Shown here piece after piece: positions 2,176 to 42,520 of a stretch of DNA of 64,000 nucleotides (its first letter is position 1; each line of letters begins with the position of its first letter). The translations under genes were made by a program, and so were the position numbers. Source of the stretch: Longimicrobiales bacterium (GTDB lineage: Bacteria; Gemmatimonadota; Gemmatimonadetes; Longimicrobiales; Gaopeijiaceae); the NCBI GenBank assembly GCA_965206455.1, contig CBDBJS010000002.1, forward strand, positions 3,327,779-3,391,778. The letters run 5' to 3'. The notes under the pieces are model-generated. The model saw only the letters and a list, made by a program, of their open reading frames with translations. It was not told the DNA's origin and did no database searches.

Positions 2176-2217
2176 GCGACAATCAAGGTGAGCGGCTTGC
2201 GACAATCAAGATGAGCG
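2176..2217. repeat. Two copies of a 19-nt direct repeat GCGACAATCAAG(G/A)TGAGCG, period 23 nt
   Basis: Copies at 2176-2194 and 2199-2217 differ at one position. They lie in the 465-nt non-coding gap between 2038 and 2504. Confidence 0.8.
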
Positions 2218-2503
2218 AGTGAGGTCGCGACGCTTCGAGTGGGGAACGATGGTGAGTTCGCGGAAATGGGGCAAGAGAGGGGCCGGGCTGCAAGCGGCAC
2301 GATCGGGATCAAGGGTGGGGTTTGCCGGGTGGGTTCGCGGGTCATCCGCCGCCCCGGCGCGGCGAGCGTAGCGAGCCGGGGCGGGGCGGCGGATGAGGAC
2401 CGGATTTCCCGAGGGGTGGAGGCAGGGCGGAGTGTGCCCGGCGGCGTCTACCGAGGAAGAAATCATTGAGGCATCTCCAGACCCTGAGCGAGCCAGGAAG
2501 AAA

Positions 2504-3064: not shown

Positions 3065-3170
3065 ACCCTCCAGCGCGCCGCTGGAATGCGAGTTCATCCG
3101 GCGGCGATCCTTCCAGACGCAGGGCTAGGCTCGCGCCGGGAGGTCTTTCAGTTCGAGGGCTGGTCCGGAC

Positions 3171-5951
3171 CTATCGACGGCGTCGCTTCGGTTTCTTGAT
3201 CCCGATGCCCAGGGGTGCTCGCATCTTCTCGTAGAGCATGAACAGATGCTCGGCGCGTTCGCGTTCCGAGGTGAACCCCGTCCGACGATAGAGCCGGTCC
3301 ACGGCGCGGTCGATGGTTTGGTGGGCGCGGCGGAGGGTAGGCGGCATCAGGTCCGGGTCGTAGAGGTCCGCCAACGTAGCATCGGGATAGGCGGTGCGAC
3401 CGTCGAGGACAGCCTGCGCCAATGACTCGAGTTTGGACGTGTTGGCGTCAGCGGGTGGCGTTGGGAAGGTGTTGTAGACGAGGCCGATGGAGTACCGGTA
3501 GTCGCTCTTGAGGCGTCCGCCGATGTGGCGTAGCCAGGCCATGTGCATGGCCGAGGTCAACAGCGCAAAGTCTGTCAGCGTTGCGTCGTTCAGAACGCGA
3601 ACGAGGTTGCTCGGGATCACCGGGGGTTCCAGCCAGCCAATCGGGACATACTCCCGCCGTTCCGAGCTGACCTCGGGGATCACCAAGAAGGGTGTGGTGG
3701 GGATAACCTCGACATTGTATCGGGTCGGGTAGTGGGCAAGCTGAAGCGTCTGCTTCCGCTTGCTGCGGGACCGGAACTCGCGAACGCGGGCGATCCGTTC
3801 CCGAACGCGGGGCATGCCCGCCAACACATTCGGGGGGGCTTCATGCAGCGCGAGAATCCAGCGGTGACGATTCCTGAGGTAATCCAGCGCGCCAACATAG
3901 GGCCGAATGAAAGGCTCCGCCGCGGGTTCCGCCGACAAGAACTCGTCGCGGGCTTCCTCGGACGGGAAGATGTACTGACCGTTGTCGATTGGCTGGGACC
4001 CACTGATCAGCTTCGGCAGCCCATTCAGCGGGGCGCTTTCCTCACAAACTGTAAGATTCGGGTCGGCCAGCCCGCCGGCCTCGAACAGGTACGGCGAGAG
4101 CACGGAGTGCTGGGATTCCTCTGGATCGCCGTTGATGTCGGGATAGCTGAACAGGCGCTTCCTGCCGGGCACCGCATCGCGGCCATCGAGTCCGAGGATG
4201 ACCACATGCACGTGGGCCTTTCCACGCGCGTCCGATCCCCACGCGAAGGTCCGGTGGGCAAAGGCGATCTCAAGCCCGCAGCGGTTGAACAGGATAGGCC
4301 AGAGCTGCGCTACTTGCTCTCCCTGGGTGATCGAATTGGTGGCGACGAAGCCGATCCGGGTCCCGGTGCCGCGCGCGTACTCTCCCGCCTTCATGAACCA
4401 CGCGGTCACGTAGTCGAGCGTACCTCCCGACCCGCCAAGGTCCGCGATCCTCCGCACCTGGGCGCGGTGGGCTTTGCTCTGGAACTTCGCACCTCCGAAG
4501 GGCGGATTGCCGAACACGAAGGCGCAGTCTTCTGGCCTCAGCAGTTCCGACCAGTCTGTTTCCAGCGCGTCCGCGTGGAGGATGTGCGGCGAAGTCTCAA
4601 GTGGAATCCGCGCATACGTCTGGCCGAACTCGAGGCTCAGCCGGTTGTTCATGATGTGGTCCATCATCCACAGCGCGGTCTCCGCGATGCGGACGGGAAA
4701 CTCGCCGATTTCGATCCCGTAGAACTGGTCCACGTCCACAACGGACAAGGTCTCGGCCAGTGCGTCGAGCTGCTTCTCGGGATAGATCTCCTTCAGAACC
4801 TCGATCTCCAGCCCCCGCAACTCGCGGTAGGCGATGATGAGAAAGTTTCCACACCCGCACGCGGGATCGAAGAAGGTCATCCGGCCGAGTCTCTCTTGAA
4901 ACCGCCGCAGATCGGCGCGGCGGCGGCTGTCCTTGCGGACCTTCAGGCGCTCGAACTTGGCGCGAAGGTCGTCCAGAAACAGCGGCTCGATCACCTTCAG
5001 GATATTCTTCTCGGTCGTGTAGTGCGCGCCCTGTTTGCGGCGGTCCGCCGGGTTCATGACCGATTGGAATAGCGCACCGAAGATTGCGGGCGAGATGTTC
5101 GACCAGTCGAAACGGCAGGCGTCGAGAAGCTTGTTCCGCATGGACGCGTCGAACGCCGGGATGCGCAGCGGCTCTTGAAACAGGTCACCGTTGACGTACG
5201 GAAACCGGGCCAGGTCCTCGTCGAGGGTCGCCGTCCGGTCATGATCCGGAGTGTTGAGGACCTGGAAGAGTTGGGCAAGCATCGGTCCGAGGTCCATGCC
5301 GTCCGCGCGAGTGCGGGACTCCAAGAAGTCAAACAGGATGTCGCGCGGCTCGAAGATGCCCGTGTCGTCGGCGAACAGGCAGAACACGATCCGCACAAGA
5401 AGTCGTTCCAGGTCGTGGCCTTGGTAGCCCGCGTCGTCGAGCGCGTCGTGGAGCCGCCCGACCAGCTCGGCGGCCTCGATGTTCGCCGGGTCCTGATCGC
5501 GGAACTTCCGGCGCTGGACGCCGAGGATGAAACCGAACGCCTCGACATGCGCGGGCAGGTCCGCGAGGGGGAAGACGACGACCTCCCGCTCGTCCAGATC
5601 GTGAAGCTCGAAGGTCTGGAAGTCGCTCACCAGGATGTAGCGCGGGCGGTCGCGCTCGGACAGCGCGTCGAAATACTCTCCGGCCTGTCCATAGGCCTTG
5701 CCGAGATCGCGCCCGGCGCTCTTCTGCTCGACGATGAGGACGCCCGGCCAGAACAGGTCGATGAAGCCCGACCGGTTATCGAGCTTGGCGACATGCTCCT
5801 CGTAGCGTGCGACGGATCGGCGGCGGACATCGAACACCTCGAAGAAGTCATTGTAGAAGCTCTGCGTCTCGCCCTTCTCGTATGCCGCGTCCCGCCATTC
5901 TTCGGCGAAGGATGCGGCGCGCACGCGCACCTCGTTCCAGGACAGGCGCAT
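3171..5951 (-). CDS. MmeI-like Type IIL (IIG) restriction-modification enzyme: fused endonuclease, N6-adenine methyltransferase and specificity domains
   Basis: 926 aa, collinear with MmeI as I remember it. It has an MRLSWNEVR start, the nuclease motif FIDLFWPGVLIVEQK (D...EXK), the SAM motif FFDPACGCGNFL, catalytic GNPPFGG, SITQGEQV, and C-terminal YRYSIGLVYNTFP. Confidence 0.9.
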   Translation of the reverse strand: MRLSWNEVRVRAASFAEEWRDAAYEKGETQSFYNDFFEVFDVRRRSVARYEEHVAKLDNRSGFIDLFWPGVLIVEQKSAGRDLGKAYGQAGEYFDALSERDRPRYILVSDFQTFELHDLDEREVVVFPLADLPAHVEAFGFILGVQRRKFRDQDPANIEAAELVGRLHDALDDAGYQGHDLERLLVRIVFCLFADDTGIFEPRDILFDFLESRTRADGMDLGPMLAQLFQVLNTPDHDRTATLDEDLARFPYVNGDLFQEPLRIPAFDASMRNKLLDACRFDWSNISPAIFGALFQSVMNPADRRKQGAHYTTEKNILKVIEPLFLDDLRAKFERLKVRKDSRRRADLRRFQERLGRMTFFDPACGCGNFLIIAYRELRGLEIEVLKEIYPEKQLDALAETLSVVDVDQFYGIEIGEFPVRIAETALWMMDHIMNNRLSLEFGQTYARIPLETSPHILHADALETDWSELLRPEDCAFVFGNPPFGGAKFQSKAHRAQVRRIADLGGSGGTLDYVTAWFMKAGEYARGTGTRIGFVATNSITQGEQVAQLWPILFNRCGLEIAFAHRTFAWGSDARGKAHVHVVILGLDGRDAVPGRKRLFSYPDINGDPEESQHSVLSPYLFEAGGLADPNLTVCEESAPLNGLPKLISGSQPIDNGQYIFPSEEARDEFLSAEPAAEPFIRPYVGALDYLRNRHRWILALHEAPPNVLAGMPRVRERIARVREFRSRSKRKQTLQLAHYPTRYNVEVIPTTPFLVIPEVSSERREYVPIGWLEPPVIPSNLVRVLNDATLTDFALLTSAMHMAWLRHIGGRLKSDYRYSIGLVYNTFPTPPADANTSKLESLAQAVLDGRTAYPDATLADLYDPDLMPPTLRRAHQTIDRAVDRLYRRTGFTSERERAEHLFMLYEKMRAPLGIGIKKPKRRRR

Positions 5952-10340: not shown

Positions 10341-13300
10341 TCAGGCCGGGATGGTGTCGGGCCGGATCGTATCCGGCTGGACCGTGTCGGGCTGAACGAC
10401 CTCCGTGGAGTCGCGGGCGGCGGTCGCGGTGTCGGCGGCAGCAGAGTCCAGAGCGGCGTCAGTATCGGCTCCCTCGTCCCCGGGGCCAGCCACAGTGTCG
10501 GTCTCCGCCACCACAGATTCTTCCTCAGTGCCCGGATCCTCCTCCGCGCCAGCCGGCTCCGAAGCCGTCTCCATCCGCACCGCACCGCTCCCCACGTCCA
10601 CGGAAAACACGGTGCGGATCATCGCCCGGTCGGAAAGCATGCGGATGTTGGGCGCAAGCTCGGGGGGACGGGCGAAGCGGTCATTCCCCACAAGCTCGCC
10701 GGGGCGAAGGTGGTGCTCCACCACGGCGAAGCGGATTTCTCCCGCGCCCTCCTCGTGCTCGAAGTCGAGGATAACGCCGTCGCCGTCCGCCGTCCCCCAG
10801 TGCTCGATCTGTGACCCGCGCCGGTCGCCGGGAACAGACTTGCCGTTCAGCGCGGCGAGTCGGGGACCGTCTTCGCCGAATCGAAAGAGCATCATCTCCG
10901 CGCCGATTTCGGAGGCCACGATCACGCGGAGCAGGCCCGAAGGAACGGTGCTGTCCGCCACGATGGACACGGTCGGCGGAGGCACGTCGATCGGATCTCC
11001 GGCGGCGAGGGCATAGCGAACGCTCCGGGGACTGAAGTCGGCGAGGGGTCCGGGGGCCTCGGGGGTGGCGCCAAAGGGCCCGGCTACCTCAACCGCCCAC
11101 TGGGCGCCCGGGTCCGAGTCGTCCCGGGTGGGGTCGGTGCCCCAGTATGCGGAACCGGTCTCCCGGTCCAGGGCGTAGACGAGCGTCGAGGGAGCGGGCC
11201 GGTCGGCCGAGGGAGAGGCGGTCGACATTCCCACCGCGAGAAACACCCCTGCGATAGCCAGCCCCGCGAGGGGTGCCCACCACCCGTTCGGCTCCCGCAG
11301 TGTGTCGAGCAGCGGCAGCAGCTGAAGGAAGACGAGCGCGGCCAGAACGGCCACCACAGGCGCCAGCGCAAGGCCCATCGCGAGCCACACACTCTCGATC
11401 AACGGCGTCAGCACCACCACGACGGGCACGGCCGCCACCACCGCCACCAACCAGCGCAGGAGCCCGATCCGCCCATCCCGTGGGAGCCCCGCGACCGCCA
11501 TCGCCCCGATGCAGCCTGCCAGCGCCGGCCACTGGAAGTTCATGGCGGCCATCGGGAACATCACGGTCGCCACGGCGGCGAGCGCCACGGGGACGAAAAG
11601 AGCGCCGACGGCCAGCTCGGCCAGCGAGAACCACCTTCTGAGCAGTGACAGGATCGCTGCCGCGAGGGCGAACGCGGTACTCACAATGGCTAGGACGTAC
11701 CAGCCTTCGCTGTGGAACGCTCCCGCCTGAAGGGCGCCGGCTTCCGGATGCGCGCCGCTGCGCCAGGCGTAGAGGTAGAACGCTGCCGCGCCCGCTGCTC
11801 CGGTCAGTACGACCGTGGCCCCGAAGCCCGCGACAATACACTTCGTCCGGAACCCGCTTCGCTTCCCCACCAGGAGCGCGAGGACCCATGCTACAACCGC
11901 GAGCACACCCAACACCCAAATCCACAGTGCGCCGTAGGTCACCAACCCCAGAAACGGGATCGAGATGTAGCTGACGTCGGGCCCGTCGACCATGCTCAGA
12001 TCGGCGTTGCCGAAGTGTTGCAGCATGGCCACCGCGTGCTCGCCGTGGTGCTGCAGCGTCCGCTCGTCGAAGTTGTCGGGCGAATCGTAGACCTGGTGGT
12101 AGACGTGCGCCCGGCCCAGCCCGGCAAAGTTCAACCCCTGCTTCCCGGCTTCCTTGAAGGGCGAGAAATCCGTGTCGTTGGGCATCCGCTTGTAGATCTC
12201 GTAGCTCACCGAATTCGCGGACGGATAGGGATCCGCCTGGCGCAGCGCCTCGATCACCCAGCCGTTTTCGGCACCCGTCTCGAACATCATGGACGGGCCG
12301 CCGCCGCCCCGCATTTCAATCGACACGACAAGCGCCACATCATCCATCCACGGGTGCTCGTCGACGAACGCGCGGGCACCCAGCAGTCCCGGCTCCTCCG
12401 CGTCGGTAATCAGGACGATCAGATCGTTGCGGAGCTGGCCGCGCTCGCCCAGGGCTCTCACCCCTTCCAGGATGGTGACCACACCCGAGCCGTCGTCGCC
12501 GGCGCCGCGCGCGATCTCGCGGCTGTCGTAGTGCGCGGTGACGAGTACGGCACGGCCGCCGGGATCGGAGCCGGGGATCCTTGCCACCACGTTCCGGACC
12601 GTCGCCGCGCGAGGGGCAAAGCTGCCTCCCGCGAACGAAGTGGTGGTCTGCACGGTGGGGTCGTGCCCGAGGCCGCGCAGCTGTTCCAGCAGGTATTCGC
12701 GTACCCGGCCGTGCGCGGGGGATCCGGGGGGATGGGGGTCCGAGGCGATCCGCACGAGGTGCGTCATCGCCCGCGCCGAAGAGAACACCGAATCCGGGGC
12801 GCTGGCCGGAACCGGCGCCGGGGCCACCCTGAAGGAGCTCGAGAACCAGGCCGCAACGACAAGGAGGACCAGGGAGACGGGCCCGCGCATGCCTCTCCAG
12901 GGCGGAGGCGCCAGCGCCGCCTCTTCGGGCGCGGCGGCGGCGGGCGCGGCTGCTTCGGTCGTGGGGCCGGCCTGCGTCCCGGGGCCAGCTTCGGTCGTTC
13001 GTCCAACGCGCGGATGACTCCCCGCCGTGGCCGGCGCTGCCGCCCGAGCAACCTTCTTGCGCTTCAGTCTCCCCAAGAACGAACGCTTGCCACGCCCAGG
13101 CTCCCCGGCAGGAGGCTTGCGGCCGGCGGCTGACGGATCACCCCCGCGCTTCGAGCGGTCCCCGGGCGATGCCCGCCCCGTGGTTGGCGCCCGACCCGTC
13201 GCCGGTGCCCGACCCGCCGGAGAAGCCCGCTCCCCAACCGTCGCCGGGTCCCCGGACGGCTCCCCCGCACCACCGTCCTCCGCTCCCTCCTTCGCAGCCG

Positions 13301-13397
13301 CTTCCTTCGCGATATCGCGCTCCAGCTCCTCGATCTCTTCTTCGCTGATCCCCAATTCCGCGAAGGATGGAATCCTCGGCAGCTTGTCGTCGCTCAT
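10341..13397 (-). CDS. M28-family metallopeptidase fused to a polytopic membrane domain, with low-complexity N-terminus
   Basis: RNVVARIPGSDPGGRAVLVTAHYDS...GAGDDGSGVVTILE...LITDAEEPGLLGARAF is the M28 aminopeptidase core. About 8 TM helices follow. The start is uncertain because the N-terminal 150 aa are Pro/Gly/Ala-rich. Confidence 0.8.
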   Translation of the reverse strand: MSDDKLPRIPSFAELGISEEEIEELERDIAKEAAAKEGAEDGGAGEPSGDPATVGERASPAGRAPATGRAPTTGRASPGDRSKRGGDPSAAGRKPPAGEPGRGKRSFLGRLKRKKVARAAAPATAGSHPRVGRTTEAGPGTQAGPTTEAAAPAAAAPEEAALAPPPWRGMRGPVSLVLLVVAAWFSSSFRVAPAPVPASAPDSVFSSARAMTHLVRIASDPHPPGSPAHGRVREYLLEQLRGLGHDPTVQTTTSFAGGSFAPRAATVRNVVARIPGSDPGGRAVLVTAHYDSREIARGAGDDGSGVVTILEGVRALGERGQLRNDLIVLITDAEEPGLLGARAFVDEHPWMDDVALVVSIEMRGGGGPSMMFETGAENGWVIEALRQADPYPSANSVSYEIYKRMPNDTDFSPFKEAGKQGLNFAGLGRAHVYHQVYDSPDNFDERTLQHHGEHAVAMLQHFGNADLSMVDGPDVSYISIPFLGLVTYGALWIWVLGVLAVVAWVLALLVGKRSGFRTKCIVAGFGATVVLTGAAGAAAFYLYAWRSGAHPEAGALQAGAFHSEGWYVLAIVSTAFALAAAILSLLRRWFSLAELAVGALFVPVALAAVATVMFPMAAMNFQWPALAGCIGAMAVAGLPRDGRIGLLRWLVAVVAAVPVVVVLTPLIESVWLAMGLALAPVVAVLAALVFLQLLPLLDTLREPNGWWAPLAGLAIAGVFLAVGMSTASPSADRPAPSTLVYALDRETGSAYWGTDPTRDDSDPGAQWAVEVAGPFGATPEAPGPLADFSPRSVRYALAAGDPIDVPPPTVSIVADSTVPSGLLRVIVASEIGAEMMLFRFGEDGPRLAALNGKSVPGDRRGSQIEHWGTADGDGVILDFEHEEGAGEIRFAVVEHHLRPGELVGNDRFARPPELAPNIRMLSDRAMIRTVFSVDVGSGAVRMETASEPAGAEEDPGTEEESVVAETDTVAGPGDEGADTDAALDSAAADTATAARDSTEVVQPDTVQPDTIRPDTIPA

Positions 13398-13409
13398 GGT
13401 TGGGTCCGC

Positions 13410-14891
13410 CTACAGCGGGCCGTCCTCCCAGGGTCCCCAGAGAGCGTAGGTCGCGCTCGCGGCCCCTTCGCCGGCCTTGCGGCCACCCTGCTGGTTGAAG
13501 AATAGCACCCGGCCATCGGGGCTGAAGCACGACCCCGCGAACTCGCCCGGCTGCCGTCCACCCTCCTCATGCGCCACCCTCACCAGGTTCACGATCCTCC
13601 CTTCGCGGTCCAGCCCGCGCACGAACTGGTCGCCGGCTCCGTCCTCGCACATCACCAGTCCCCCGCGCGAACTCAGCACGATGTTGTCCGGACTGTCCAG
13701 AACCTCCTTGGACGGCGACTCGAAGACCAGCGTCAGTTCTCCGGTGTCGGCGGATGTCGGCCTGTAGTGGAAGACCTGTCCGGCAGTCGCCTCCCCTCCG
13801 TTCGTCGAGACGACATAGATCCCGCCATCGCCGTGGAAAGCGCCCTCCAGACGTGCGAACCGAGCGGCGCCCTTCGCGACCCCCTGCTTGAAGACCGCCA
13901 GCCGATCTTCGCCCGCGGACACCGGGTCGGGATCGTTGATGTCCACCCAGTGCGCGGACAGAACCGTGCCGGGCGACTGGCCGCGCGCCGTCAGGTAGCC
14001 GGGCTCTCCGGTCACCGCCATCATCTGCAGCCTGCCGCCGGCGGCAAGCACCCCGGGCTCATCCGGGATGAAACGGTAGAGCCCCGCCCCGGGAAGCCGG
14101 TCCGGTACGTACCAGGCGTCTTCGGTCTCGTAGACGATGCCCGTCTCGGGATCCACCGCAATCGCCTCGTGGATGAAGCGGCCCATGGCGCGCAGGGGTA
14201 CCGGATCCACCGGACCGGTGGCGGACGCGGCAACTTCGAAGATGTAGCCGTGCGCCTCGTCGAAGCCCGACTCGGGACCGGCGGTGATTTCCTCGCACGA
14301 CAACCAGCTCCCCCACGGAGTGGGACCCCCGGCGCAGTTCACCCAGGTGCCTGCAAGCGACACGAACTCGTCCACGAGTTCGAAGCTCAGCTCGCCACCC
14401 TGCTCCGAGATTCGCACCTCCAGCGAGGTCGTGCCCCCGCTGGCTTTCGCGTCATAGTAGGGCTCGCCGATCGGCCGTGCCGAGTCCGGCTCATCCACCA
14501 TCTCGTGGTTGCGGATCAGACGGACGTTGCCGTTCGGAAGGGGAAACGCGGCCATCCCGTCGAAGGCGTTGGGCACGATCAGCCCGTCACGCACCGACGA
14601 CGGTACTCCGCCGGTGCTGATCCGCACGCACCGGAACGCCTCCGGGATCTCGATCTCGGGGCAGTCGGCGCTCGTCACCAAAGCACCGTAGGGTTCGATG
14701 AACGGGCTGCCGTCGCCCCGGAGGACGGCTTCCCCACGATCGGCCAGGCCCGCGACCTTCGAGGCGGAGTGACCGCGAGCGCGAACGCCGTTGAACGCGG
14801 CGAGTCCCGCCAGAGACGGCGTCAGCATGACACCCCCACTGGCGGTAGCGAGTTTCGTGAGGAATGCGCGGCGGGCAATGGTCATGTTCAT
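13410..14891 (-). CDS. TAT-exported DUF839/PhoX-like protein
   Basis: Twin-arginine signal MNMTIARRAFLTKLATASGG. The length and beta-propeller-like sequence fit the DUF839 (PhoX-type phosphatase) family. The function call is from memory only. Confidence 0.7.
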   Translation of the reverse strand: MNMTIARRAFLTKLATASGGVMLTPSLAGLAAFNGVRARGHSASKVAGLADRGEAVLRGDGSPFIEPYGALVTSADCPEIEIPEAFRCVRISTGGVPSSVRDGLIVPNAFDGMAAFPLPNGNVRLIRNHEMVDEPDSARPIGEPYYDAKASGGTTSLEVRISEQGGELSFELVDEFVSLAGTWVNCAGGPTPWGSWLSCEEITAGPESGFDEAHGYIFEVAASATGPVDPVPLRAMGRFIHEAIAVDPETGIVYETEDAWYVPDRLPGAGLYRFIPDEPGVLAAGGRLQMMAVTGEPGYLTARGQSPGTVLSAHWVDINDPDPVSAGEDRLAVFKQGVAKGAARFARLEGAFHGDGGIYVVSTNGGEATAGQVFHYRPTSADTGELTLVFESPSKEVLDSPDNIVLSSRGGLVMCEDGAGDQFVRGLDREGRIVNLVRVAHEEGGRQPGEFAGSCFSPDGRVLFFNQQGGRKAGEGAASATYALWGPWEDGPL

Positions 14892-33615: not shown

Positions 33616-35049
33616 ATGACCCAAGCCCCCAGCGCCAAATCTCTTGTCGAGCGCTTCAAGCTGAAGGAGCGAGGTCGCGAGCGTGGCCGGAGCGACCTGC
33701 CTTCGGAGCATCAGCCCACACTCGATGATGTCGAAACCGATGTAGTGGACTACTGCAACGGTCTCTTCGCGGAAAAGCGGGACGAGTACAGCAAGCACCG
33801 GCCCATCTTCGAGGAAAGAATGAGGCCGCCATCGGAGAGTCGCGGTGCGGACGCGTTGTTGGAACAGGCTTGCAAGGAACTGAAGGATGCTGTAGCGGAG
33901 GAGCGGCCAGATTTGGAAGGCCTGGCACGAGATGCACAACAAGCCATCGGTGAACTCAATCGTTTCAAGCGCGAAGAAGGGAGAACGGCCGACGCGGACT
34001 TCCCTGAGAGCCATCGGCTGCACTATGGGATCCTGGCGGCCTTGTTGGTATTGGAAACGTTGATAAACGGCATCTTCTTTGGGGCGAACGTTGCCGGCGG
34101 GCTCTTCGGAGGCATGAGCTACGCGGTTCTGATCAGCGCCGTCAACGTGTTGGGGCTCGGTTTCCTGGCAGCGACCATGTTCAGGTATGTCCAGCACCGC
34201 GATTCCCGTCGCAAGATCGGCGGGTTGGCGATCCTGGGCGTTGTTGTGGTCGTTGCAGTCTTCTGGAATCTCTTCGTAGCTCACTACCGCGAGGCCCTGG
34301 CGGAGGACTACCCACCCGCGCCCGGGACCGTCACCGCGGAGTCGTCGGCGTCGGAGCAGGAGATAGCCGCCTGCTGGAGGGGGCCCGACGAATCCGAGGC
34401 TGATCAGGAAGCTCTGTGTCTGTTCCGGGCAAGTCCATTTGGATTGGGCGGATTCTACTCGTACATGCTTCTCCTGATCGGACTTGCGATGTGCGCTTTC
34501 GCAGCTTTGGACTGGTTCAAGACGGATGACCCCTACCCAGGCTACGGCAAGAGAGAACGAAACCGAAGGCGGACCGAGGGAGCGCTTTCCGACGACCGGC
34601 GCGAACTTCTGGGCCGGGTCAGGGATATGCATGATGACGCCCTGCGAAGACAGCGCGGCGATTTCGTCGATCCGGTCGACTCCCGGGGCCTCGCCCTGAG
34701 CGCCTTCGACAAGCTTCTAAGGCGACATGGCGACCTTTGCAGCTTTGCCGACGACCTCGAAAAGAGCTGTAGTGGCGCTCTGGATATCTACCGGACGGCC
34801 AACCGCGAGGCCCGGTCCACTCCCGAGCCGCGCCTGTGGCAAGAAACGTGGGTATCCGACTGGCCTCGGCCGGAGCCGCCGAGCAACTCGGATCTCATGA
34901 CCGAGGCGGAAGCCGCGCAGCGCAGCCTCGATGCCCACACAGCCTTGGAGGAACGCGAGAAGAAGCTGCGATCCTGTCACGACGAGTGCCAAACCCTTGT
35001 GAACGACTTCACAAAGCTCGACCCACATGACAAGGCCGTTCCGACATGA
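33616..35049 (+). CDS. Gene A of candidate system: 4-TM protein with N- and C-terminal coiled-coil-like cytoplasmic regions
   Basis: 477 aa from ATG 33616. TM helices are LHYGILAALLVLETLINGIFF, MSYAVLISAVNVLGLGFLAATMF, LAILGVVVVVAVFWNLFVAHY and FYSYMLLLIGLAMCAFAALDWF. A Cys-containing ~50-aa loop lies between TM3 and TM4, and DDPYPGYG follows TM4. No family recognised. Confidence 0.7.
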   Translation: MTQAPSAKSLVERFKLKERGRERGRSDLPSEHQPTLDDVETDVVDYCNGLFAEKRDEYSKHRPIFEERMRPPSESRGADALLEQACKELKDAVAEERPDLEGLARDAQQAIGELNRFKREEGRTADADFPESHRLHYGILAALLVLETLINGIFFGANVAGGLFGGMSYAVLISAVNVLGLGFLAATMFRYVQHRDSRRKIGGLAILGVVVVVAVFWNLFVAHYREALAEDYPPAPGTVTAESSASEQEIAACWRGPDESEADQEALCLFRASPFGLGGFYSYMLLLIGLAMCAFAALDWFKTDDPYPGYGKRERNRRRTEGALSDDRRELLGRVRDMHDDALRRQRGDFVDPVDSRGLALSAFDKLLRRHGDLCSFADDLEKSCSGALDIYRTANREARSTPEPRLWQETWVSDWPRPEPPSNSDLMTEAEAAQRSLDAHTALEEREKKLRSCHDECQTLVNDFTKLDPHDKAVPT

Positions 35050-35864
35050 GCAAGCAATCGCGCCAGCGGGCAAAACAGCGCAAAGACCGGCTCGGCGTCA
35101 TCGTGGGTGGGTTCGCCGTGGCGATACTGGTCGTCCTTTTTCTTTGGGGCCAACGTGGTGGCCGCCGCCTCGATTCCTCAAACTGCCCGGAAGACCGGCG
35201 GTACGCGGCACAGATTGCGATTCTGGTCGATCCATCCGACACCTTGACCAGCGTGCAGGAGGGTTCGGCCGCTCCACGAATCCTGGAAGCCATCGAGCGC
35301 GAGGCGACCGAAACGACCGAGATCCGTGTGTACACCGTGGGTAGAGCGGGCCGAGGCGACACCGCCACCGTGCTGCGCCTCTGCAAGCCATCCCATCCCG
35401 ATAGCGTCTCGTCGTTGACGGGCAATCCCCGGACGGCAGCCAGGCGGTACGACGAGAGTTTCCTAGCTCCTCTGGAAGGGACCTTGGCCGCACTTTTGGA
35501 TGTCGAGGGTGACACCATCTCGCCGATCATGGAGGGTATCCAGGCCGCTGCCGTGAACGCTTTCCGGCCACGCAACACGAACATCCCACGCCAACTCCTG
35601 ATCGTGTCCGACATGATTCAGAATTCCGCCGATCTCTCGTTCTACACGGATCCCATAGGCTTTGGGCCCCTTTCTCGAGACCCCAACTACGGAACGCTCA
35701 GGGTAGATCTCTCGGGTGTCGCCGTCACGGTGTTCCTCTTGGCGCGGCGGGGTGAGGCCGGCCGGATTCAGGCTGGACCCCTGCGCGGCTTCTGGGAGGA
35801 CTATTTCATCGACCAGGGAGCCGAGCAGGGCGCCAGGCCCAGATGGATCAACGTGGAAGGATGA
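35046..35864 (+). CDS. Gene B: N-terminally membrane-anchored vWA-like protein
   Basis: ATGA overlap with gene A (35046-35049). Basic N-terminus plus TM (VIVGGFAVAILVVLFLW). MIDAS-like spacing ILVDPSDTLTS ... GDTISPI ... LLIVSDMIQN. Confidence 0.6.
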   Translation: MSKQSRQRAKQRKDRLGVIVGGFAVAILVVLFLWGQRGGRRLDSSNCPEDRRYAAQIAILVDPSDTLTSVQEGSAAPRILEAIEREATETTEIRVYTVGRAGRGDTATVLRLCKPSHPDSVSSLTGNPRTAARRYDESFLAPLEGTLAALLDVEGDTISPIMEGIQAAAVNAFRPRNTNIPRQLLIVSDMIQNSADLSFYTDPIGFGPLSRDPNYGTLRVDLSGVAVTVFLLARRGEAGRIQAGPLRGFWEDYFIDQGAEQGARPRWINVEG

Positions 35865-37321
35865 ACAGCACGGCCGGACAATTCAGCGCCGCGGCATCCA
35901 GGGAAGCCCGGAAGCAGCACCGGGAGTCATGGCTCATCGTCCTGGGCATCGGCTTTGTGATCATCATCATCGGCAACCTTCTCGGCTTGGGACCCTGGTG
36001 GCTTGCCATCGCGGTCTCCGTTGCGATGGGCGGCTTTGCCTATTCCGTCCGGGATGTCGATGTATCCGGTGACGCCAAGGGCGATTCCATTTACTACCTT
36101 GGCCTGCTTTTTACATTCGTGGCACTCGTCGCGGCACTGATTGCTTTCGATTGGGAGACTTCCGATGCTGCCGGGAGCAGCACATCGGGAGCAATCCGCA
36201 ACTTCGGGATTGCCCTGCTGACCACAATCGTCGGCCTTGCAGGGCGCGTCTGGTTTTCAATGTCTCAGGAGTCGCCAGGCGACATAGCACACACGGCCAA
36301 GTCAGCACTCGAAGAAGCCGTGTCCGCAATGAAGGGGAGCCTCGACCGGGCACGTGACGACCTGGATACGTTGGCCGGCAAGTTCCGGGAGTCGACAAAG
36401 GATCTCGGGAAGACCACCGCCACGATTGCCGCCAGCGCCAAGAAGGCCGCCGAGACCTCCGAGTCTCTGGACAAATGCTCGGCGGAAGTCGCAGGAGCGG
36501 CCAAGGACTTTACTCGCGAAATGGGCGACTTCCGCACTGCCATGGGGGCAGGGGCAGACGCCGCAGCCAGCTTGAAACGATCTCTTGGGGGAATCGGGGA
36601 TCAAACCAAAGTGTTCGGAACACGCTTTGAGACCCTCAGCGAACAAATCGAGCAGATCCACTCCGCTTTTGCCCGAATCAACGGCGTGGCAGGGCCGTCC
36701 GCCGATGCAATCGCCGCCACTTCGCAGGGAGTGTCACACGCAGCTGCCGAGGCATCTTCCCTCGGCAGGACGTTGGCTGGTCTGCGGCACAGCGCCGGGA
36801 AGGCGCGCAAGGCGTTCGACGGAGTCGCCGACTCCGTCGATGCGACCCGTGTGGTGCCCGCCTTGGAAGAGGCTGCAGCTCAGGTTGCCGAAGGAGGCCG
36901 GCATTTTCGGAGCGTCGGTGTACAAGCGGCCGCCACGGACGACGAGTTGGCGGGCTTGGGGGAGTCCGCCAGGAACGCTAAGGACAGCATTGCCTCGGTC
37001 TCGGACACCGCTCGATCGATCCGCGAGCACATGGATGGAGCGCGCAACGACCTCTCGTCCAGCGTCAGTACGGTTCAGAAGCATACGCGAGGCTTGAACG
37101 CGGACCTGGATGCGATGGAGGATCAGTCCGTCAAACTATCCGGCGCTCTTGCGCGTGTTGAGCGGCAGGCACAGCGCTTGTCCGAAGACATTCGCCAAGC
37201 CCGCGCCAGCGGCGTTCCCGGATCGCTGGCGGTGAGCCCCTTCACCTGGATCGCACGTGCATTCCGGCGCGTGGCTCGGGGTCGGAGCCAAGCCGACCCA
37301 ACCTCCCGGCGTAGACGCTGA
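35861..37321 (+). CDS. Gene C: MotA/ExbB/TolQ-like channel protein with ~330-aa Ala-rich helical tail
   Basis: ATGA overlap with gene B (35861-35864). It has 4 TM helices. YLGLLFTFVAL and FGIALLTTIVGLAG lie 37 residues apart, versus GLFGTVWG and ALLATAIGL 35 residues apart in E. coli ExbB as I recall it. A long helical C-terminal region follows. Confidence 0.55.
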   Translation: MNSTAGQFSAAASREARKQHRESWLIVLGIGFVIIIIGNLLGLGPWWLAIAVSVAMGGFAYSVRDVDVSGDAKGDSIYYLGLLFTFVALVAALIAFDWETSDAAGSSTSGAIRNFGIALLTTIVGLAGRVWFSMSQESPGDIAHTAKSALEEAVSAMKGSLDRARDDLDTLAGKFRESTKDLGKTTATIAASAKKAAETSESLDKCSAEVAGAAKDFTREMGDFRTAMGAGADAAASLKRSLGGIGDQTKVFGTRFETLSEQIEQIHSAFARINGVAGPSADAIAATSQGVSHAAAEASSLGRTLAGLRHSAGKARKAFDGVADSVDATRVVPALEEAAAQVAEGGRHFRSVGVQAAATDDELAGLGESARNAKDSIASVSDTARSIREHMDGARNDLSSSVSTVQKHTRGLNADLDAMEDQSVKLSGALARVERQAQRLSEDIRQARASGVPGSLAVSPFTWIARAFRRVARGRSQADPTSRRRR

Positions 37322-37339
37322 CCGGACGGCATTGCGCCC

Positions 37340-38638
37340 ATGCTCCCCGCCGAGAAGACACATTACCGGAAGGGCTTGGCACTGGGACTAACCCTGGCCG
37401 AGACATTCAGTATCGTCGTCTTCATCCTGCTACTGGCGTGCGCGGTTCTGCTACGGCAGGAGCAGAGGCAACGGGACACGGCCCAAGCGCAACGGGACAC
37501 GGCCCAAGCGCAGCGGGACACGGCCCAAGCGCAGCGGGACACGGCCCAAGCGCAGCGAGACACGGCCCAAGCGCAGCGGGACACGGCGCGAATCGATCTC
37601 TCAATCACTCAGGAGATGCTGCGCGCAGACAGCATTTCCTGGGGGAATGCGGACGCGTGGTTCGACTACGCCAGACGGCTCCGCCAAGAGTTGGAAGCTG
37701 AGCAAGTCCGCGCCGAGACGACCGAAAGGGACCTTGTCCGCGAGAGGGCTCGCGCTTCGGAAGCAGAGGCACTGTTGGCCGCTAGGGCATCGAACGATGA
37801 TCTCGCGGAGCGCACCCTGGAGCAGGCCGCCGAGCTTGATGCGCTGAAGGACTCCGTTTCTGGGAGCGAGCGCCGTTTTAATGAAGTGACAAGCCGCCTG
37901 GATTCACTTGAGACGCGTCTCGCCGAGGCGGAGCAGATCGGCCGACTCGTGCGCGACGGCATCGCGGAGCGCAGAGACCTTAGTCCCGAACAAGCGTGGG
38001 AAGTTGTCGAGCAAGCTGCTCATGCGGAGCGCCTGGCAGATTCCTTGTCGGGCGCCCGACGAACGATCGGTGCCATGGACCGCGAACTGCGGGAGGTCCA
38101 GCAGTTGCTGCACGGTGACACTGCCGCTGCGGTCGATTCACTTCGGACCAGCCTAAGCGACAGCCGCTTCCGCGAAGACACGCTTCGTGGCCGAATCAGA
38201 GACGCCGAGCGGGAGCGCGATGACGCAATAGGCCGGGCCGAGTACCGCGAAACCCAACTTCAACAGTTGCGGCAAGGGTCCGGAATCGATCCTCCCCCGT
38301 GCTGGCTGGACGGAGAGGGCAGTCCCGAGTACATCTTCCGCATCGAGTTAATGGACAGAGGCATGAGACTGTTCAACATCGCGCCTGAGCGACGCGTCAA
38401 CAGCGATCCCGAGGCAATGAGGTATGCGGCATCGATCGAGGACGGACGCATCTACGCTCCTGCCGAGTTTCTACGCCTTGCCTTGCCGTTCTACTCTATG
38501 GGCACGGCCCGAACCGAGGCATTCGGTCCGATGGGCTGCCGATTCTGGATTCGACCCGTTGACCTCACGGGCGACCGCAAGGACATTTTCCAGGAGCGAC
38601 AGGAGCAGCTGTGGCGGCGTTTCTGGTTCCGATGGTAG
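37340..38638 (+). CDS. Gene D: MotB/ExbD/TolR-like single-TM protein with long coiled coil and unknown C-terminal domain
   Basis: The TM helix LTLAETFSIVVFILLLACAVLL has an embedded acidic residue. It is followed by (QRDTAQA)x5 and ~250 aa of coiled-coil-like sequence, then a ~120-aa domain with two Cys (PPPCWLDG, PMGCRFW). Confidence 0.5.
   Translation: MLPAEKTHYRKGLALGLTLAETFSIVVFILLLACAVLLRQEQRQRDTAQAQRDTAQAQRDTAQAQRDTAQAQRDTAQAQRDTARIDLSITQEMLRADSISWGNADAWFDYARRLRQELEAEQVRAETTERDLVRERARASEAEALLAARASNDDLAERTLEQAAELDALKDSVSGSERRFNEVTSRLDSLETRLAEAEQIGRLVRDGIAERRDLSPEQAWEVVEQAAHAERLADSLSGARRTIGAMDRELREVQQLLHGDTAAAVDSLRTSLSDSRFREDTLRGRIRDAERERDDAIGRAEYRETQLQQLRQGSGIDPPPCWLDGEGSPEYIFRIELMDRGMRLFNIAPERRVNSDPEAMRYAASIEDGRIYAPAEFLRLALPFYSMGTARTEAFGPMGCRFWIRPVDLTGDRKDIFQERQEQLWRRFWFRW
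37469..37590 (+). repeat. Tandem repeat: 5 full plus 1 partial copies of a 21-bp unit CA(A/G)CG(G/A)GACACGGCCCAAGCG
   Basis: Units at 37469, 37490, 37511, 37532 and 37553, with a partial unit at 37574. Full units differ only at positions 3 and 6. In frame they encode QRDTAQA heptads inside gene D. Confidence 0.95.
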
Positions 38639-38716
38639 GTGCACTCAAATGAAACCAGACTGCGAAAGCACTCGGCGGTGGAAGCCATCGCGACGTAGCG
38701 GCTGCCCCTGCATGTC

Positions 38717-40330
38717 ATGAGCGGCCACTGGGGATTCTACGGGCGCCACGAAGAACTCGGAGGTCTGGTACGCGCCCTCCGGGCCGATCGCTGGTTCTTC
38801 GGCGCGATCCGCGGGCGCCGACGTGTAGGCAAGACCGAACTCGCGCACCGAGCTCTCGACACGGTCCGGGCAGAAGACCCCGGCCGCCCCATCCTGTACC
38901 TGCAGCTCGTGGACGAATCCGAGTCGGGCATGGCAACCCGTTTCCGCCGGGCTATTGCTGCGGAGCCCTCCCTGGATCCCGCCACGATCGACCTCGACGA
39001 TCTCAGGGACCATCACGGCGTCGCGAACGCCGTCGGCCGGATCTGCGCGGCGCACGGGATCGTGGTTCTGGACGAGTTCCAGGTGTGTCATCGGGGGCCG
39101 CTACGTCCCCTGGCTTCCTCGCTTCAGTTCGAGGTGGACAACCTGCAGCGTCGCGACCGCCGGGGCGCGCTGATTCTCCTGGGGTCGGTGCAAACCGAGA
39201 TGGAAGAACTGTTGCACGGCCAGCGGTCGCCCCTGTTCGGGCGCGCCACCTATTCGCTCACCCTTCGGCCTTGGCGCATCGCCACGACACTGAATGTCGC
39301 CGGTCGCCATCGCGGTGCCGACCCGCACCGCTTCCTCACACTGTGGACGCTGTTCGATGGTGTTCCGAAGTATTGGCGGCACTTCGCGGGTCTTACTGGC
39401 AGCCTCCCGGGGCAAGGTAATGACAGGTGGACCATGGACTTGGCCAACCGGCTCTTCCTCGCGCCGGACGCCCTGCTGCGCGACGAAGGGGAAGTCCTCC
39501 TGGGACGCGAGCTCCAGGGCGACAGCCTGCGCATCCTGCGCGAGGTCGCGACGCGGCGTTTCTCGACCCTTCCCCGTCTGCGGCGGGTCTTCCCCGGCCT
39601 GGCGGATCTCGAAGAGCGCCTCGAAGCGCTGGTCTTGGACTTGCGCCTGGTGGGTCAACGCATGCCGATGTTTCGCGGCAACCGTCAGGCCGCCCGGTAC
39701 GTCGTTTCCGATCCGTTCCTACGAGCCTGGCTGAACGTTTTCGAGTCCGCCGCAGGCAGGGCGCAGGTGCGCCAAGCGCACGGTATCGACAAAGCACTGC
39801 TTCGAGACTTGCGCACTCTGGAGGCCTACGCCTTCGAAGAAATCGTGCGGGAGGCGAGCCATCAGGCCTCGCGACTGGGTGCGGACGACTTCCCGCTTAC
39901 GGAACTGGCAGGCGGTTACTGGAACAGGCCGGAAGCCGGAGGCGACATCGAGATCGACTACATCGCGTGGAACGCGGACGAGGTCAGGGTTCGCTTCGGG
40001 TCTTGCAAACGCAATGCGCACGCGCATGACGAAGCCTCGCTGAACCGCTTTCGTGGCCATGTGGACCGATATCTCAACACGGACCACGGTCGGCGCTTCC
40101 GTGACGCCCACACCGAATACGCGCTGTTCTCGCCCGTCTTCGAGCTCGACCAGCGGTCCGCGCTGGAAGGAGGCGGCTGGATCTGCCGGGACCTTTCGGA
40201 CTTCCGGCGGATGCTTTCCCTACCCCTCAAACCAACATCCCGTCCGCAACCACCTCCACCGTCGCAGGCCCGTTGTACGCCAACGCCTGCGCCAGCGCGT
40301 CGTCCAGCTCGCTCGCATCCCGCACCCTGA
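38717..40330 (+). CDS. Gene E: Arch_ATPase (PF01637-type) P-loop ATPase with DUF234 PD-(D/E)xK-like C-terminus
   Basis: FYGRHEELGGL...GRRRVGKTEL (Walker A), VVLDEFQ (Walker B), and the C-terminal GDIEIDYIAW...VRFGSCKR nuclease-like motif. The last ~40 aa are Pro-rich and overlap the convergent gene by 104 nt. Confidence 0.8.
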   Translation: MSGHWGFYGRHEELGGLVRALRADRWFFGAIRGRRRVGKTELAHRALDTVRAEDPGRPILYLQLVDESESGMATRFRRAIAAEPSLDPATIDLDDLRDHHGVANAVGRICAAHGIVVLDEFQVCHRGPLRPLASSLQFEVDNLQRRDRRGALILLGSVQTEMEELLHGQRSPLFGRATYSLTLRPWRIATTLNVAGRHRGADPHRFLTLWTLFDGVPKYWRHFAGLTGSLPGQGNDRWTMDLANRLFLAPDALLRDEGEVLLGRELQGDSLRILREVATRRFSTLPRLRRVFPGLADLEERLEALVLDLRLVGQRMPMFRGNRQAARYVVSDPFLRAWLNVFESAAGRAQVRQAHGIDKALLRDLRTLEAYAFEEIVREASHQASRLGADDFPLTELAGGYWNRPEAGGDIEIDYIAWNADEVRVRFGSCKRNAHAHDEASLNRFRGHVDRYLNTDHGRRFRDAHTEYALFSPVFELDQRSALEGGGWICRDLSDFRRMLSLPLKPTSRPQPPPPSQARCTPTPAPARRPARSHPAP

Positions 40331-42272
40331 CCCCGAACGCCCCGCACAGCTTCGCGTACTCGGAAAAATCCGGGTTGTGCAGCGACGTCTGCCACACGTC
40401 CAGGCTGCCCGCGCGCTGCTCCTTGGAGATCTTGCCCAGCTCGTCGTTGTTGAGGACCAGGTGGGTGATGTTCATGCCGTACTTGACGGCTGTGGTGATC
40501 TCGGCCAGGTACTGCCCGTAGCCCCCGTCGCCGGAGACTGCGACCACCTGACGTCCGGTGAAGGGGGTCCCCTCTTCCCGGGTCGCCGCCCAGGCGCCGA
40601 GCGCCGCGGGGTAGGCGAAGCCGATGGAGCCGAGATACCCCGACATGAGGACCGCCTGGCGCCGGCATTCGAAGTAGCGGCCGAACGAATAGGCGTTGTT
40701 GCCGACGTCGATGGTGAGGATCGCGTTGTCGTCGACCGCGCGGGTCAGCGCCGCGAAGATCGCCGCCGAGTTGACGCCCTCCCCCCGGTCGTCCGCTACG
40801 CGCCGCGCCTTCTCGGCCCGCCAGATACGCCACCGGTCCGCGATCTCGCCGCGGTGGTCCGCCGACGCCGCGCCATCTTCGGCCACGGCCCGCGCGAGCA
40901 GGTCCACCGTGATCCCGATCTCGCCCCAGACGGGCACGTCCACCGCGTGGAATTTCCCCAGCGCCATCGGATCGAAGTCGACCTGGATCGTGGGCTTCTT
41001 GTCCGTGATGCCCGTGTGATTGGAGAAGCTGGCACCGAGCACGAGCAGCAGATCGCTCTCGTTCATGAACCAGCTCGCGATCGGGGTGCCGCTCCTTCCC
41101 AGGACGCCGCAGCCGAGCGGATGCGTGTCCGAGATCAACCCTTTTGCCTTGAATGTGGTCACAACCGGGCAGTTGAGGCGTTCCGCCAGCGCCGTGATCC
41201 GGTCCATGTTGAAGCGGGCCCCGTGGCCAACGATGATCACCGGTCGCTCGGCGCCCTTGAGCAAGGTCGTCGCCTCTTCAAGGGCGTCCGCAGGCGGCGC
41301 AATGGTCCTTCGGGTCAGTCTGCCCGCAGGTCCTCCCGGCCCGCTCCCCTCGTCGGCCGGCAGCACCTGAACCTCGTCGGGGAAGATGAGGTGGGACACG
41401 CCCCGGTTCAGGATCGCGCTCTTGCACGCCAGGTTGATCAGCTCGGCGTGCTTGCTGGAGTGAAGAACCGGCTGGCTCCACTGGGCGACCTTGCCGAAGG
41501 CGGCCTGAAGGTCCACCTCCTGGAACGCCCCGGGCCCCAGCACCTGGGTGTCGACCTGCCCGGTCAGCGCGAGGACGGGGGAGCGGTCCACGTTGGCGTC
41601 CCAGAGGCCGGTCAGGAGATTCGTCGCCCCGGGCCCCGCAATGGACAGACAGGCCGCCGGCCTCCCGGTGAGCTTGCCGTACGCTGACGCGGCAAAGGAC
41701 GCAGCGCCCTCGTGACGGATCCCCACGAAGGTCATCTCTCCCGCCTCTTCCCGCCGTCGGATGGCGTCGGCCAGCCCCAGGTTGGAGTGCCCCACCATCC
41801 CCCACACCCACCGCACCCCCCAGTTCACCATGGACTTCGCCATCACATCGGACACCGTCTCGACATGCAGTTCGTCTTCGGGCAACCCGACGTAGATCCC
41901 ATCCTCCCGCACCTCCACCTTGTAGGTTGCGACCCCGTCGTCGTACCCTCCCGGCGGCTTTCCCGTCAGCGGATGGAAGTCCCAGCCGTGCCAGGGGCAG
42001 CGCAGCCAGCCGTTCTCGATCGAGCCTTCACCAAGGGGCCCGCCCTGGTGCGGGCACTTGTTGTCCAGCGCGGCATAGATGCCCTTGTGGCGTGTCATGC
42101 AGACGGTCTTGCGGCCGCAGCTGACGGCCTGCACGCGGCCCTCGGGCAACTCGTCGGGAGCGAGGACTCTGAGCCAGCGGACCCGGCCGCCACCCGGAGC
42201 GGCAGCGGAGGAGCCGTTGCCGGTTGCGGAAGGAGACTGGTCGACGTCGGAACGGCCGGAAGGATCTGACAT
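40227..42272 (-). CDS. Rieske [2Fe-2S] domain fused to a thiamine-pyrophosphate enzyme (acetolactate synthase/pyruvate oxidase-like)
   Basis: Start at ATG 42272. Rieske motifs CPHQGGPL and CPWHGWDF. TPP enzyme N-domain GHSNLGLADA...IAGPGATNL. TPP-binding GDGGYGQY...LNNDELG. Confidence 0.85.
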   Translation of the reverse strand: MSDPSGRSDVDQSPSATGNGSSAAAPGGGRVRWLRVLAPDELPEGRVQAVSCGRKTVCMTRHKGIYAALDNKCPHQGGPLGEGSIENGWLRCPWHGWDFHPLTGKPPGGYDDGVATYKVEVREDGIYVGLPEDELHVETVSDVMAKSMVNWGVRWVWGMVGHSNLGLADAIRRREEAGEMTFVGIRHEGAASFAASAYGKLTGRPAACLSIAGPGATNLLTGLWDANVDRSPVLALTGQVDTQVLGPGAFQEVDLQAAFGKVAQWSQPVLHSSKHAELINLACKSAILNRGVSHLIFPDEVQVLPADEGSGPGGPAGRLTRRTIAPPADALEEATTLLKGAERPVIIVGHGARFNMDRITALAERLNCPVVTTFKAKGLISDTHPLGCGVLGRSGTPIASWFMNESDLLLVLGASFSNHTGITDKKPTIQVDFDPMALGKFHAVDVPVWGEIGITVDLLARAVAEDGAASADHRGEIADRWRIWRAEKARRVADDRGEGVNSAAIFAALTRAVDDNAILTIDVGNNAYSFGRYFECRRQAVLMSGYLGSIGFAYPAALGAWAATREEGTPFTGRQVVAVSGDGGYGQYLAEITTAVKYGMNITHLVLNNDELGKISKEQRAGSLDVWQTSLHNPDFSEYAKLCGAFGVRVRDASELDDALAQALAYNGPATVEVVADGMLV

Positions 42273-42520
42273 GGGAGCGGTTCTCCATGGGTTCGCGGGG
42301 GCGGCAGCACAATACGATACCCACACGCACCAGGACAGGTTCACGACCGGTCATCGGGCCCCCGGCGACCCAGGCGAAGCCGCGCGGGCTTGATTCTTGC
42401 CCCCGAACCTCGGAACATGCATCATTCCAGCATGACTGGATCCGATCTCGTCCGAGACCGGAATCGCCCCTCCGAACCGAACAACGCCTCCCCACCCATG
42501 ACAGGGCGAAGACGAACACG

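Follow-up and report, generated by a model that had tools for sequence, protein, structure and literature searches.

Do five consecutive genes of a Longimicrobiales genome make up an immune system related to Zorya, and which of them belong to it? The genes, here A to E, lie at positions 33,616 to 40,330 of a 64,000-nt stretch of contig CBDBJS010000002.1 (the window), and a first-pass annotation had read them as a single five-gene membrane operon in which a stator-like pair works beside an ATPase-nuclease effector. To our knowledge, Zorya is so far the only known immune system built on an ion-driven rotary motor. We found that A-D form a conserved module, a tightly coupled operon (33616-38638), and that the fifth gene, E, is best described as a neighbour with a classification of its own. 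On the present evidence we lean, by a modest degree, towards reading A-D as an undescribed four-gene Zorya-like candidate defence module built around a probable ion-driven motor.

A conserved four-gene cassette

The open reading frame calls for the locus are as follows.

33616..35049, + strand: gene A, 477 aa
35046..35864, + strand: gene B, 272 aa
35861..37321, + strand: gene C, 486 aa
37340..38638, + strand: gene D, 432 aa
38717..40330, + strand: gene E, 537 aa, PADLOC family PDC-S27

The layout agrees with the first-pass annotation. All five genes share a strand, ATGA overlaps join A to B (35046-35049) and B to C (35861-35864), and the intergenic gaps are 18 nt between C and D and 78 nt between D and E; the N-termini of homologues favour ATG 33616 over GTG 33523 as the start of gene A. 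An M81/MlrC peptidase gene lies upstream and a thiamine pyrophosphate (TPP) enzyme gene downstream, as described. The impression that the locus is less GC-rich than its surroundings was also borne out: A-D have a GC content of 0.625 and a third-codon-position GC content (GC3) of 0.71-0.73 (0.76 in E), against 0.80-0.90 in the flanking genes (MlrC, TPP enzyme, fatty-acid desaturase and FKBP) and a median of 0.83 for the genes of the window. The A-E island is thus compositionally distinct from its flanks. A promoter and terminator scan of the locus was uninformative and found no terminator-like site between D and E.

To define the unit, we mapped the window proteins onto loci from a survey of one genome per species. 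This yielded 44 related loci, nearly all from metagenome-assembled genomes of Longimicrobiales (Gemmatimonadota), with 2 labelled Rhodothermales. A-B-C-D are collinear in about 41 of the 44, and E is found in none of them (0 of 44), nor in any further cassette locus examined. The neighbourhood survey upheld the proposed A-B-C-D order and the frequent presence of defence genes nearby, and it did not support the five-gene unit. The ATGA overlaps at A/B and B/C recur family-wide, as does a short C-D spacer of 6-16 nt. Two divergent whole cassettes (L017 and L026; L numbers denote loci) reside in a single Longimicrobiales genome (OY762557.1), with D products 59% and 54% identical to window D.

The cassette is phylogenetically broad. 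More than 100 homologues each of C and D are present in a large protein database, none with a curated domain. A profile of the transmembrane (TM) core of C collected 2,541 representatives of 50%-identity clusters at E-values of at most 1e-3, 1,749 of them at 1e-10 or below, and a Pfam scan of ten distant members of the C family returned no domain over this core. By size and alignment, the four-gene layout is kept in the distant loci L051 (481-269-585-384 aa) and L053, on a contig labelled Nordella (482-273-296-367 aa). Homologues of gene A were recovered in 42 loci and, by tblastn, on 24 alphaproteobacterial plasmids from Rhizobium, Sinorhizobium, Microvirga, Paracoccus and Tistrella that carry the cassette, 11 of which are predicted to be conjugative. 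Among these plasmids is pRL11 of Rhizobium johnstonii 3841, where the cassette occupies RL_RS31080-31095 and a thermonuclease gene, RL_RS31100, adjoins it. The cassette is horizontally mobile. Even if its function should prove not to be defence, A-D are a large, widespread and wholly unannotated four-protein membrane machine.

A candidate stator pair and two dedicated partners

Hydropathy gave the TM counts that had been proposed at first: four in A, one in B, four followed by a long tail in C, and one with an acidic residue in D. In C, the four helices fall within the first 135 residues and are followed by a variable, all-helical tail of about 350 aa, which matches only generic helical families in Pfam (DUF1664, DUF948, apolipoprotein, PspA and Mce4_CUP1). 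TM1 and TM2 form a hairpin, TM3 carries the invariant motif YYLGLLFTF and TM4 the invariant motif GIALLTTIVGLxGR. These features make C a candidate A subunit of the MotA/TolQ/ExbB/ZorA type, and no canonical stator genes occur in the cassette loci examined.

Comparisons with known A subunits point repeatedly to the same region. PADLOC ZorA models matched C at non-significant E-values of 4e-4 to 5e-2, mostly through the coiled-coil tail, and the ZorA2 model reached the TM region at 1e-3. When the TM-core profile was searched against the PDB, the best match was ZorA (8vvn_C, E-value 0.14), spanning exactly the two motif helices. In Foldseek searches with an AlphaFold 2 (AF2) model of C (mean predicted local distance difference test score, pLDDT, 59; 75-83 in the TM core), the top 14 matches were all TolQ/ExbB chains and ZorA chains were matched with probabilities of 0.97-0.99, including 8vvi_C at a target-normalised TM-score (TMt) of 0.64 and a root-mean-square deviation of 3.4 Å. 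Finally, hhalign of the C family with a TolQ+ExbB profile placed C 74-128 on TolQ 134-184, the TM2-TM3 hairpin, with Y-x-G-L-x-x-T and T-x-x-G-L in register. The score of 20.2 (P 0.025) compares with 14.2 +/- 2.6 for local shuffles, 2 of 150 of which reached 20.2 (empirical p ~0.013), with 15-17 for unrelated controls and with 10.5 for MotA. The TolQ reference profile used here is shallow, as the E. coli TolQ search gave only relatives at least 82% identical.

Product D, encoded directly after C, is a candidate B subunit of the MotB/TolR/ZorB type. Its single N-terminal TM helix contains Glu21, and the signature Y9, G12, G16, T18, E21, F28 and L30-32 is invariant in all D-equivalents across phyla, each of which directly follows the C gene and keeps the acidic residue within its one N-terminal TM helix. 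A non-significant hhalign alignment sets Glu21 opposite Asp25 of ExbD. Beyond the membrane, some 270 aa of coiled coil form a periplasmic stalk, and the protein ends in an alpha/beta domain of about 120 aa. The Cys-containing C-terminal domain noted at first was confirmed and sharpened: C321 and C400 are invariant within GIDPPPCW...PEYIFR...GCRFW, the domain is modelled at pLDDT >90, and it is also present in L051. Sequence-profile searches of the PDB with this domain found nothing.

The first-pass annotation saw no OmpA-like domain in D, which is true of the window protein; its C-terminal domain is not of the OmpA type and it has no ZorB match. Alphaproteobacterial orthologues do carry an OmpA/ZorB-type anchor. 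The Rhizobium D-equivalent ends in an OmpA domain (28.7 bits, cut-off 27.2) and matches ZorB1 at 8e-6, and in the Paracoccus D-equivalent the OmpA domain scores 25.8 bits, just under the 27.2 cut-off. The anchor domain of D is evidently modular, OmpA-like in some lineages and a Cys domain in the window lineage and L051.

Two further observations concern D. At 37468-37587, just past the TM helix, 5.7 tandem copies of a 21-bp repeat (96% matches) encode AQAQRDT heptads. They make window D 28 aa longer than its homologues of 404 aa, and the length of the periplasmic stalk may be polymorphic. A D homologue, P0191, has a precomputed match to Pfam PF27921, a recent entry that may cover part of D.

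Several results weigh against a stator pair. Pfam PF01618 (MotA_ExbB) does not match C, and a more diverse TM-core profile no longer recovered the ZorA match. All Foldseek E-values of the C model are 0.087 or higher, and the hhalign probability for C and TolQ is 1.9%. For D, hhalign of the TM region and C-terminal domain with E. coli TolR, ExbD and MotB gave non-significant P values of 0.13-0.3, and Foldseek of the full-length model was dominated by coiled-coil matches and did not recover the C-terminal fold. No one test of C against MotA, ExbB, TolQ or ZorA is significant, a result that the first-pass annotation, which had pointed to MotA/ExbB motifs in C, had itself named as telling against its reading. 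From the converging weak lines taken together, we nevertheless judge stator homology probable.

Products A and B are always present beside this pair. A has helical cytoplasmic regions at both ends of its four TM segments and keeps the polar, membrane-embedded residues E147, N151, N177 and N218, together with the motifs HYRE, DDPYPGYG and YRxAN, even among homologues at 23-27% identity. Its periplasmic TM3-TM4 loop bears a conserved Cys pair (C253/C268) and is missing from the L051 and L053 homologues. Searches of Pfam, NCBIfam, PADLOC and PHROGs found no match to A, and PDB sequences gave coiled-coil noise only. B joins an N-terminal TM anchor to a predicted periplasmic alpha/beta domain with the invariant features C47/C113, D62-x-[ST]-D65, S159-P160 and S188-D-M-x-Q; it has no match in Pfam, NCBIfam, PADLOC, PHROGs or PDB sequences, vWA models included. 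The metal-ion-dependent adhesion site (MIDAS)-like spacing that had been proposed for B survives in part: D62-x-[ST]64-D65 and S188-D189 are kept, the fifth MIDAS position varies. The conserved motifs would fit the beta-strand ends of a vWA- or Rossmann-like fold and are not a canonical MIDAS, so that B may be a degenerate member of such a fold.

The conserved Cys pairs of A (C253/C268), B (C47/C113) and D (C321/C400) all fall in predicted periplasmic segments, and only there. Because the positive-inside rule and the positions of these pairs concur, the C tail and both ends of A are predicted to be cytoplasmic and the bulk of B and D periplasmic.

How does this architecture compare with known motors? 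ZorA5B2 is a proton-driven 5:2 motor whose ZorB dimer binds peptidoglycan and whose cytoplasmic ZorA tail, about 70 nm long, recruits the ZorC/D nucleases (PMC11946911); the soluble partners across Zorya types are ZorC/D, ZorE, or ZorF (DUF3348) with ZorG (DUF2894) (PMC11890865). Like Zorya, the cassette encodes a candidate A subunit whose TM core resembles that of TolQ/ExbB and whose helical cytoplasmic tail is long and varies in length. The next gene encodes a bitopic candidate B subunit with an acidic residue in its TM helix, and in some lineages this subunit ends in a peptidoglycan-binding domain of the OmpA type. Both cassette and Zorya also reside in defence islands and are patchily distributed through horizontal transfer; for C, ZorA is the best PDB sequence match and among the best fold matches, and ZorB1 is the model that recognizes the Rhizobium D-equivalent. 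Unlike Zorya, the cassette starts with two novel membrane proteins, the four TM helices of C include an additional N-terminal hairpin, and D carries Glu where Zorya has Asp, along with its ~270-aa stalk and, in the window lineage, a non-OmpA Cys domain. The recurrent nuclease near the cassette is exported, and no cytoplasmic one is conserved with it. A-D fall outside Zorya, with no significant ZorA/ZorB model recognition and no ZorC-ZorG partner: in Pfam and PADLOC, none of these five partners is matched by A, B or E. The first-pass placement outside known Zorya types was supported, as no Zorya I-III partner or PADLOC model matches A or B (PMC11890865).

The TolQ-TolR-TolA and ExbB-ExbD-TonB systems offer a second comparison. 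TolQ and ExbB lead the Foldseek list for C, hhalign pairs TM3-TM4 of C with the TM2-TM3 hairpin of TolQ, and the long periplasmic helical stalk and C-terminal globular domain of D recall TolA/TonB. However, PF01618 and PF02472 match none of the cassette proteins, D is acidic-TM subunit and long stalk at once, TolQ/ExbB lack the ~350-aa cytoplasmic tail of C, and neither A nor B has a counterpart among Tol or Ton proteins; the context is one of defence or mobile genes, not tol-pal or TonB-receptor operons. With MotAB/PomAB, C shares a four-TM topology with both termini cytoplasmic, and D shares an acidic TM residue and, in some orthologues, an OmpA-like anchor. C differs in lacking the large TM2-TM3 cytoplasmic torque domain, and there is neither a flagellar context nor significant similarity.

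Genomic neighbourhood and proposed function

The cassette sits in variable surroundings, with 20 distinct downstream contexts among the 38 loci that have enough sequence. Defence genes tallied within about 5 kb, as raw counts with no genome-wide baseline, a limit that itself weakens the case for defence, are listed below (E-values unless marked otherwise).

Window: PDC-S27, 2.5e-118
L065: PDC-S37/Hhe, 1818 bits
L008, L017, L019, L028, L042, L048, L064 and distant L051: PDC-S37/Hhe, tblastn, 42-100% identity
L066 / L020: Gabija GajA/GajB, 1e-177 / 8e-204
L011: GajB, tblastn, 78% identity
L049, L036: PDC-S01, 7e-23 and 1.6e-81
L002: ShosA and a gene with a PRTase motif, 4e-67
L016: DISARM DrmD, 1.6e-258
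L021, L022: BnzA (Bunzi), 1e-72 and 6e-73
L022: REase/PDC-S02-like gene, 6e-17
L021: UvrD helicase and HSDR_N-like gene

Toxin-antitoxin genes (PIN, PemK, HicB and HipA) and several transposases or insertion sequence elements are also found near cassettes, and in L021 and L022 defence genes stand on both sides. The suggestion of Zorya-like stator logic in a defence setting thus gained support from defence islands in many independent contexts and lost its other half, E as the targeting ATPase.

One neighbour recurs within Longimicrobiales and in distant L051, a giant DUF4011/AAA_11/AAA_12/MTES_1575/DUF3320 helicase (PDC-S37/Hhe) a few kb downstream. This recurrence could reflect either island co-residence or a preferred partnership. 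Its positions are:

L065: 10727-15661
L048: 16207-21156
L064: 15441 to the locus end
L051: 13586 to the locus end
L042: just after D

In Alphaproteobacteria, five of the eight loci have an SNase thermonuclease gene next to the cassette, the genes being arranged in three different ways:

L053: 9011-9448
L054: 13404-14147
L055: 13856-14545
L058: 12605-13297
L059: 6299-6964

Since all five of these SNases have a signal peptide, they are predicted to be exported.

The loci that share the MlrC flank of the window bear on how the cassette moves. Their MlrC proteins are 78-83% identical to the window copy and their D products just 34-52% identical to window D, as against 54-61% for D from cassettes in other contexts. 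Because of this incongruence, and because the cassette position relative to the desaturase gene varies among loci, exchange or repeated insertion of the cassette at the MlrC site is suggested. We also considered whether conserved MlrC synteny marks A-D as housekeeping core genes; we rejected this in view of the 20 contexts found downstream, the copies on plasmids and the incongruence in identity.

We propose that A-D would encode an inner-membrane complex around a motor of the MotAB/TolQR/ZorAB (5:2) kind. C would be the channel-forming A subunit, with Thr85 and Thr121/122 lining the pore and the helical tail reaching into the cytoplasm; D would be the B subunit, with the invariant Glu21 in place of the usual Asp, a periplasmic stalk and a C-terminal anchor (OmpA-like in Alphaproteobacteria, probably disulfide-containing here). 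B, a periplasmic alpha/beta domain on a TM anchor, and A, with its four TM segments, buried Glu/Asn residues and cytoplasmic helical domains, would be dedicated partners. The most likely function of such a cassette is Zorya-like immunity against phages or other mobile genetic elements. Here, the periplasmic parts of D and B would sense an envelope perturbation and the motor would be activated. The helical regions that C and A hold in the cytoplasm would then relay the signal to an output, for which the candidates are a membrane effect of A itself and, in Alphaproteobacteria, the exported SNase. E would be another defence candidate of the island, next to the cassette and independent of it.

More tentatively, A-D could be the founding example of a phylogenetically broad family of immune systems with 5:2 motors, distinct from Zorya in partners and output, in which envelope attack would be sensed by the D stalk and anchor together with B and the motor would drive a membrane effector (A) or an exported nuclease in place of cytoplasmic nucleases. 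If true, stators would have been put to use as immune sensors twice independently, here perhaps with action in the periplasm. A second stator-like cassette with other partners would show whether the motor as sensor is a general design, and it would offer a handle on the sensing of envelope events. The copy on pRL11 makes the idea testable in R. johnstonii 3841, which is culturable and genetically tractable.

Alternative readings and the place of gene E

The alternative that survives best, although we regard it as unlikely, is that A-D are an accessory Tol/Ton/Mot-like envelope motor powering some process of the periplasm or outer membrane. Such a motor might serve envelope maintenance, or it might export, position or activate a periplasmic nuclease that scavenges DNA, and it would merely lie beside integration hotspots where defence genes gather. 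In about nine Longimicrobiales loci the cassette holds a fixed place next to MlrC, between it and the desaturase or FKBP gene, with no defence neighbour; in the main clade it follows the same ABC permease and two ~560-aa genes, with variability confined to the region beyond D. Several contexts are purely metabolic, non-defence neighbours include a multicopper oxidase, a Cache sensor and sugar or efflux genes on Paracoccus plasmids, and a PBP1A gene adjoins the Rhizobium copy. The D stalk and anchor resemble force transducers of the TolA/TonB type. Conservation of the cassette does not extend to any cytoplasmic effector, and the sole recurrent nuclease is an exported SNase, unlike the cytoplasmic ZorC/D. 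Also against a defence function, a scan of IMG/VR with gene A found no relatives and hence no copy on viral contigs, and the cassette is absent from PADLOC v2 models, PHROG families and the literature searched, with no link to defence recorded there.

An envelope machine accounts less readily for the patchy spread across phyla and plasmids, the two divergent copies in one genome, the atypically low GC3 of A-D and cassette similarity that is incongruent with synteny. The same holds for the roughly eight types of defence system that adjoin the cassette across phyla and in independent contexts, and for the defence genes that flank it on both sides in L021 and L022.

Improbable, to a greater degree, is that C and D are not a motor at all and form a membrane-anchored coiled-coil scaffold or stress-response complex, comparable to a PspA, apolipoprotein or MCP-like helical bundle, with the TolQ/ZorA likeness due to convergent TM composition. 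Non-significant scores in every stator comparison and a C tail that resembles only generic helical families are consistent with such a scaffold. Yet the weak matches converge on one superfamily, on the same two helices and in the same register; C is always followed by a gene for a bitopic protein whose TM helix holds an invariant acidic residue, and one lineage adds an OmpA/ZorB-type domain to this protein; and the invariant Thr and Gly residues of TM3/TM4 fit a pore-lining role.

A five-gene system, with E (an ATPase with a nuclease-like end) as the dedicated effector recruited by the stator-like pair, is very improbable: E lies on the same strand 78 nt past D, with similarly low GC3 and no intervening terminator-like site, and an ATPase of a related class (AAA_14-DUF4143, PDC-S01) occurs near the cassette in other genomes, but E is missing from every related locus, the slot after D elsewhere holds many unrelated systems, and the E family is catalogued as a stand-alone single-gene candidate (PMC12988326).

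With A-D as the candidate defence module, E can be placed separately. It matches PADLOC PDC-S27 over its full length, residues 4-500 aligning with profile positions 3-483 of 484, and nothing notable sets it apart from that family. The first-pass assignment of E to Arch_ATPase/DUF234 is partly recovered, as Pfam ATPase_2/AAA_14 and DUF234 matches fall below their gathering scores and the PDC-S27 match is decisive; the role given to E as the ATPase-nuclease effector of the system is not, as this PDC-S27 gene never accompanies the cassette elsewhere. Overall, Pfam, NCBIfam, PADLOC and PHROGs returned coiled-coil noise only for window A-D, and PADLOC returned PDC-S27 for E. Because of its absence from cassette loci and its full-length family match, E is, judged by sequence, an ordinary PDC-S27 member, a separate and already catalogued candidate defence ATPase that neighbours the cassette and is not a component of it. 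PDC-S27 is a single-gene defence candidate, and validation by experiment is pending for most candidates of this kind (PMC12988326). The annotation is corrected accordingly, with E to be scored apart from A-D, as PDC-S27.

Several minor observations concern the neighbours. The two adjoining ~560-aa genes directly upstream of the cassette (L064-L066, at ~400-3900) are found in the main Longimicrobiales clade and not elsewhere, with no Pfam or PADLOC match. In L049, a 1,133-aa protein encoded at 11320-14721, directly after D and beside the PDC-S01 ATPase gene, has a weak P-loop/NACHT/STAND-like signature and may be the product of an Avs-like gene. In the window, the PDC-S27 match ends at residue 500 of 537 of E, leaving a Pro-rich tail. 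The 3' ends of E and of a minus-strand gene overlap convergently by about 104 nt (40227-40330), and the tail of E may be a read-through extension created by insertion. That minus-strand gene (40227-42344) encodes a 705-aa protein in which, from its translation, an N-terminal Rieske-type [2Fe-2S] motif (CPHQGGPL...CPWHGW) is apparently fused to a TPP enzyme body, an unusual combination.

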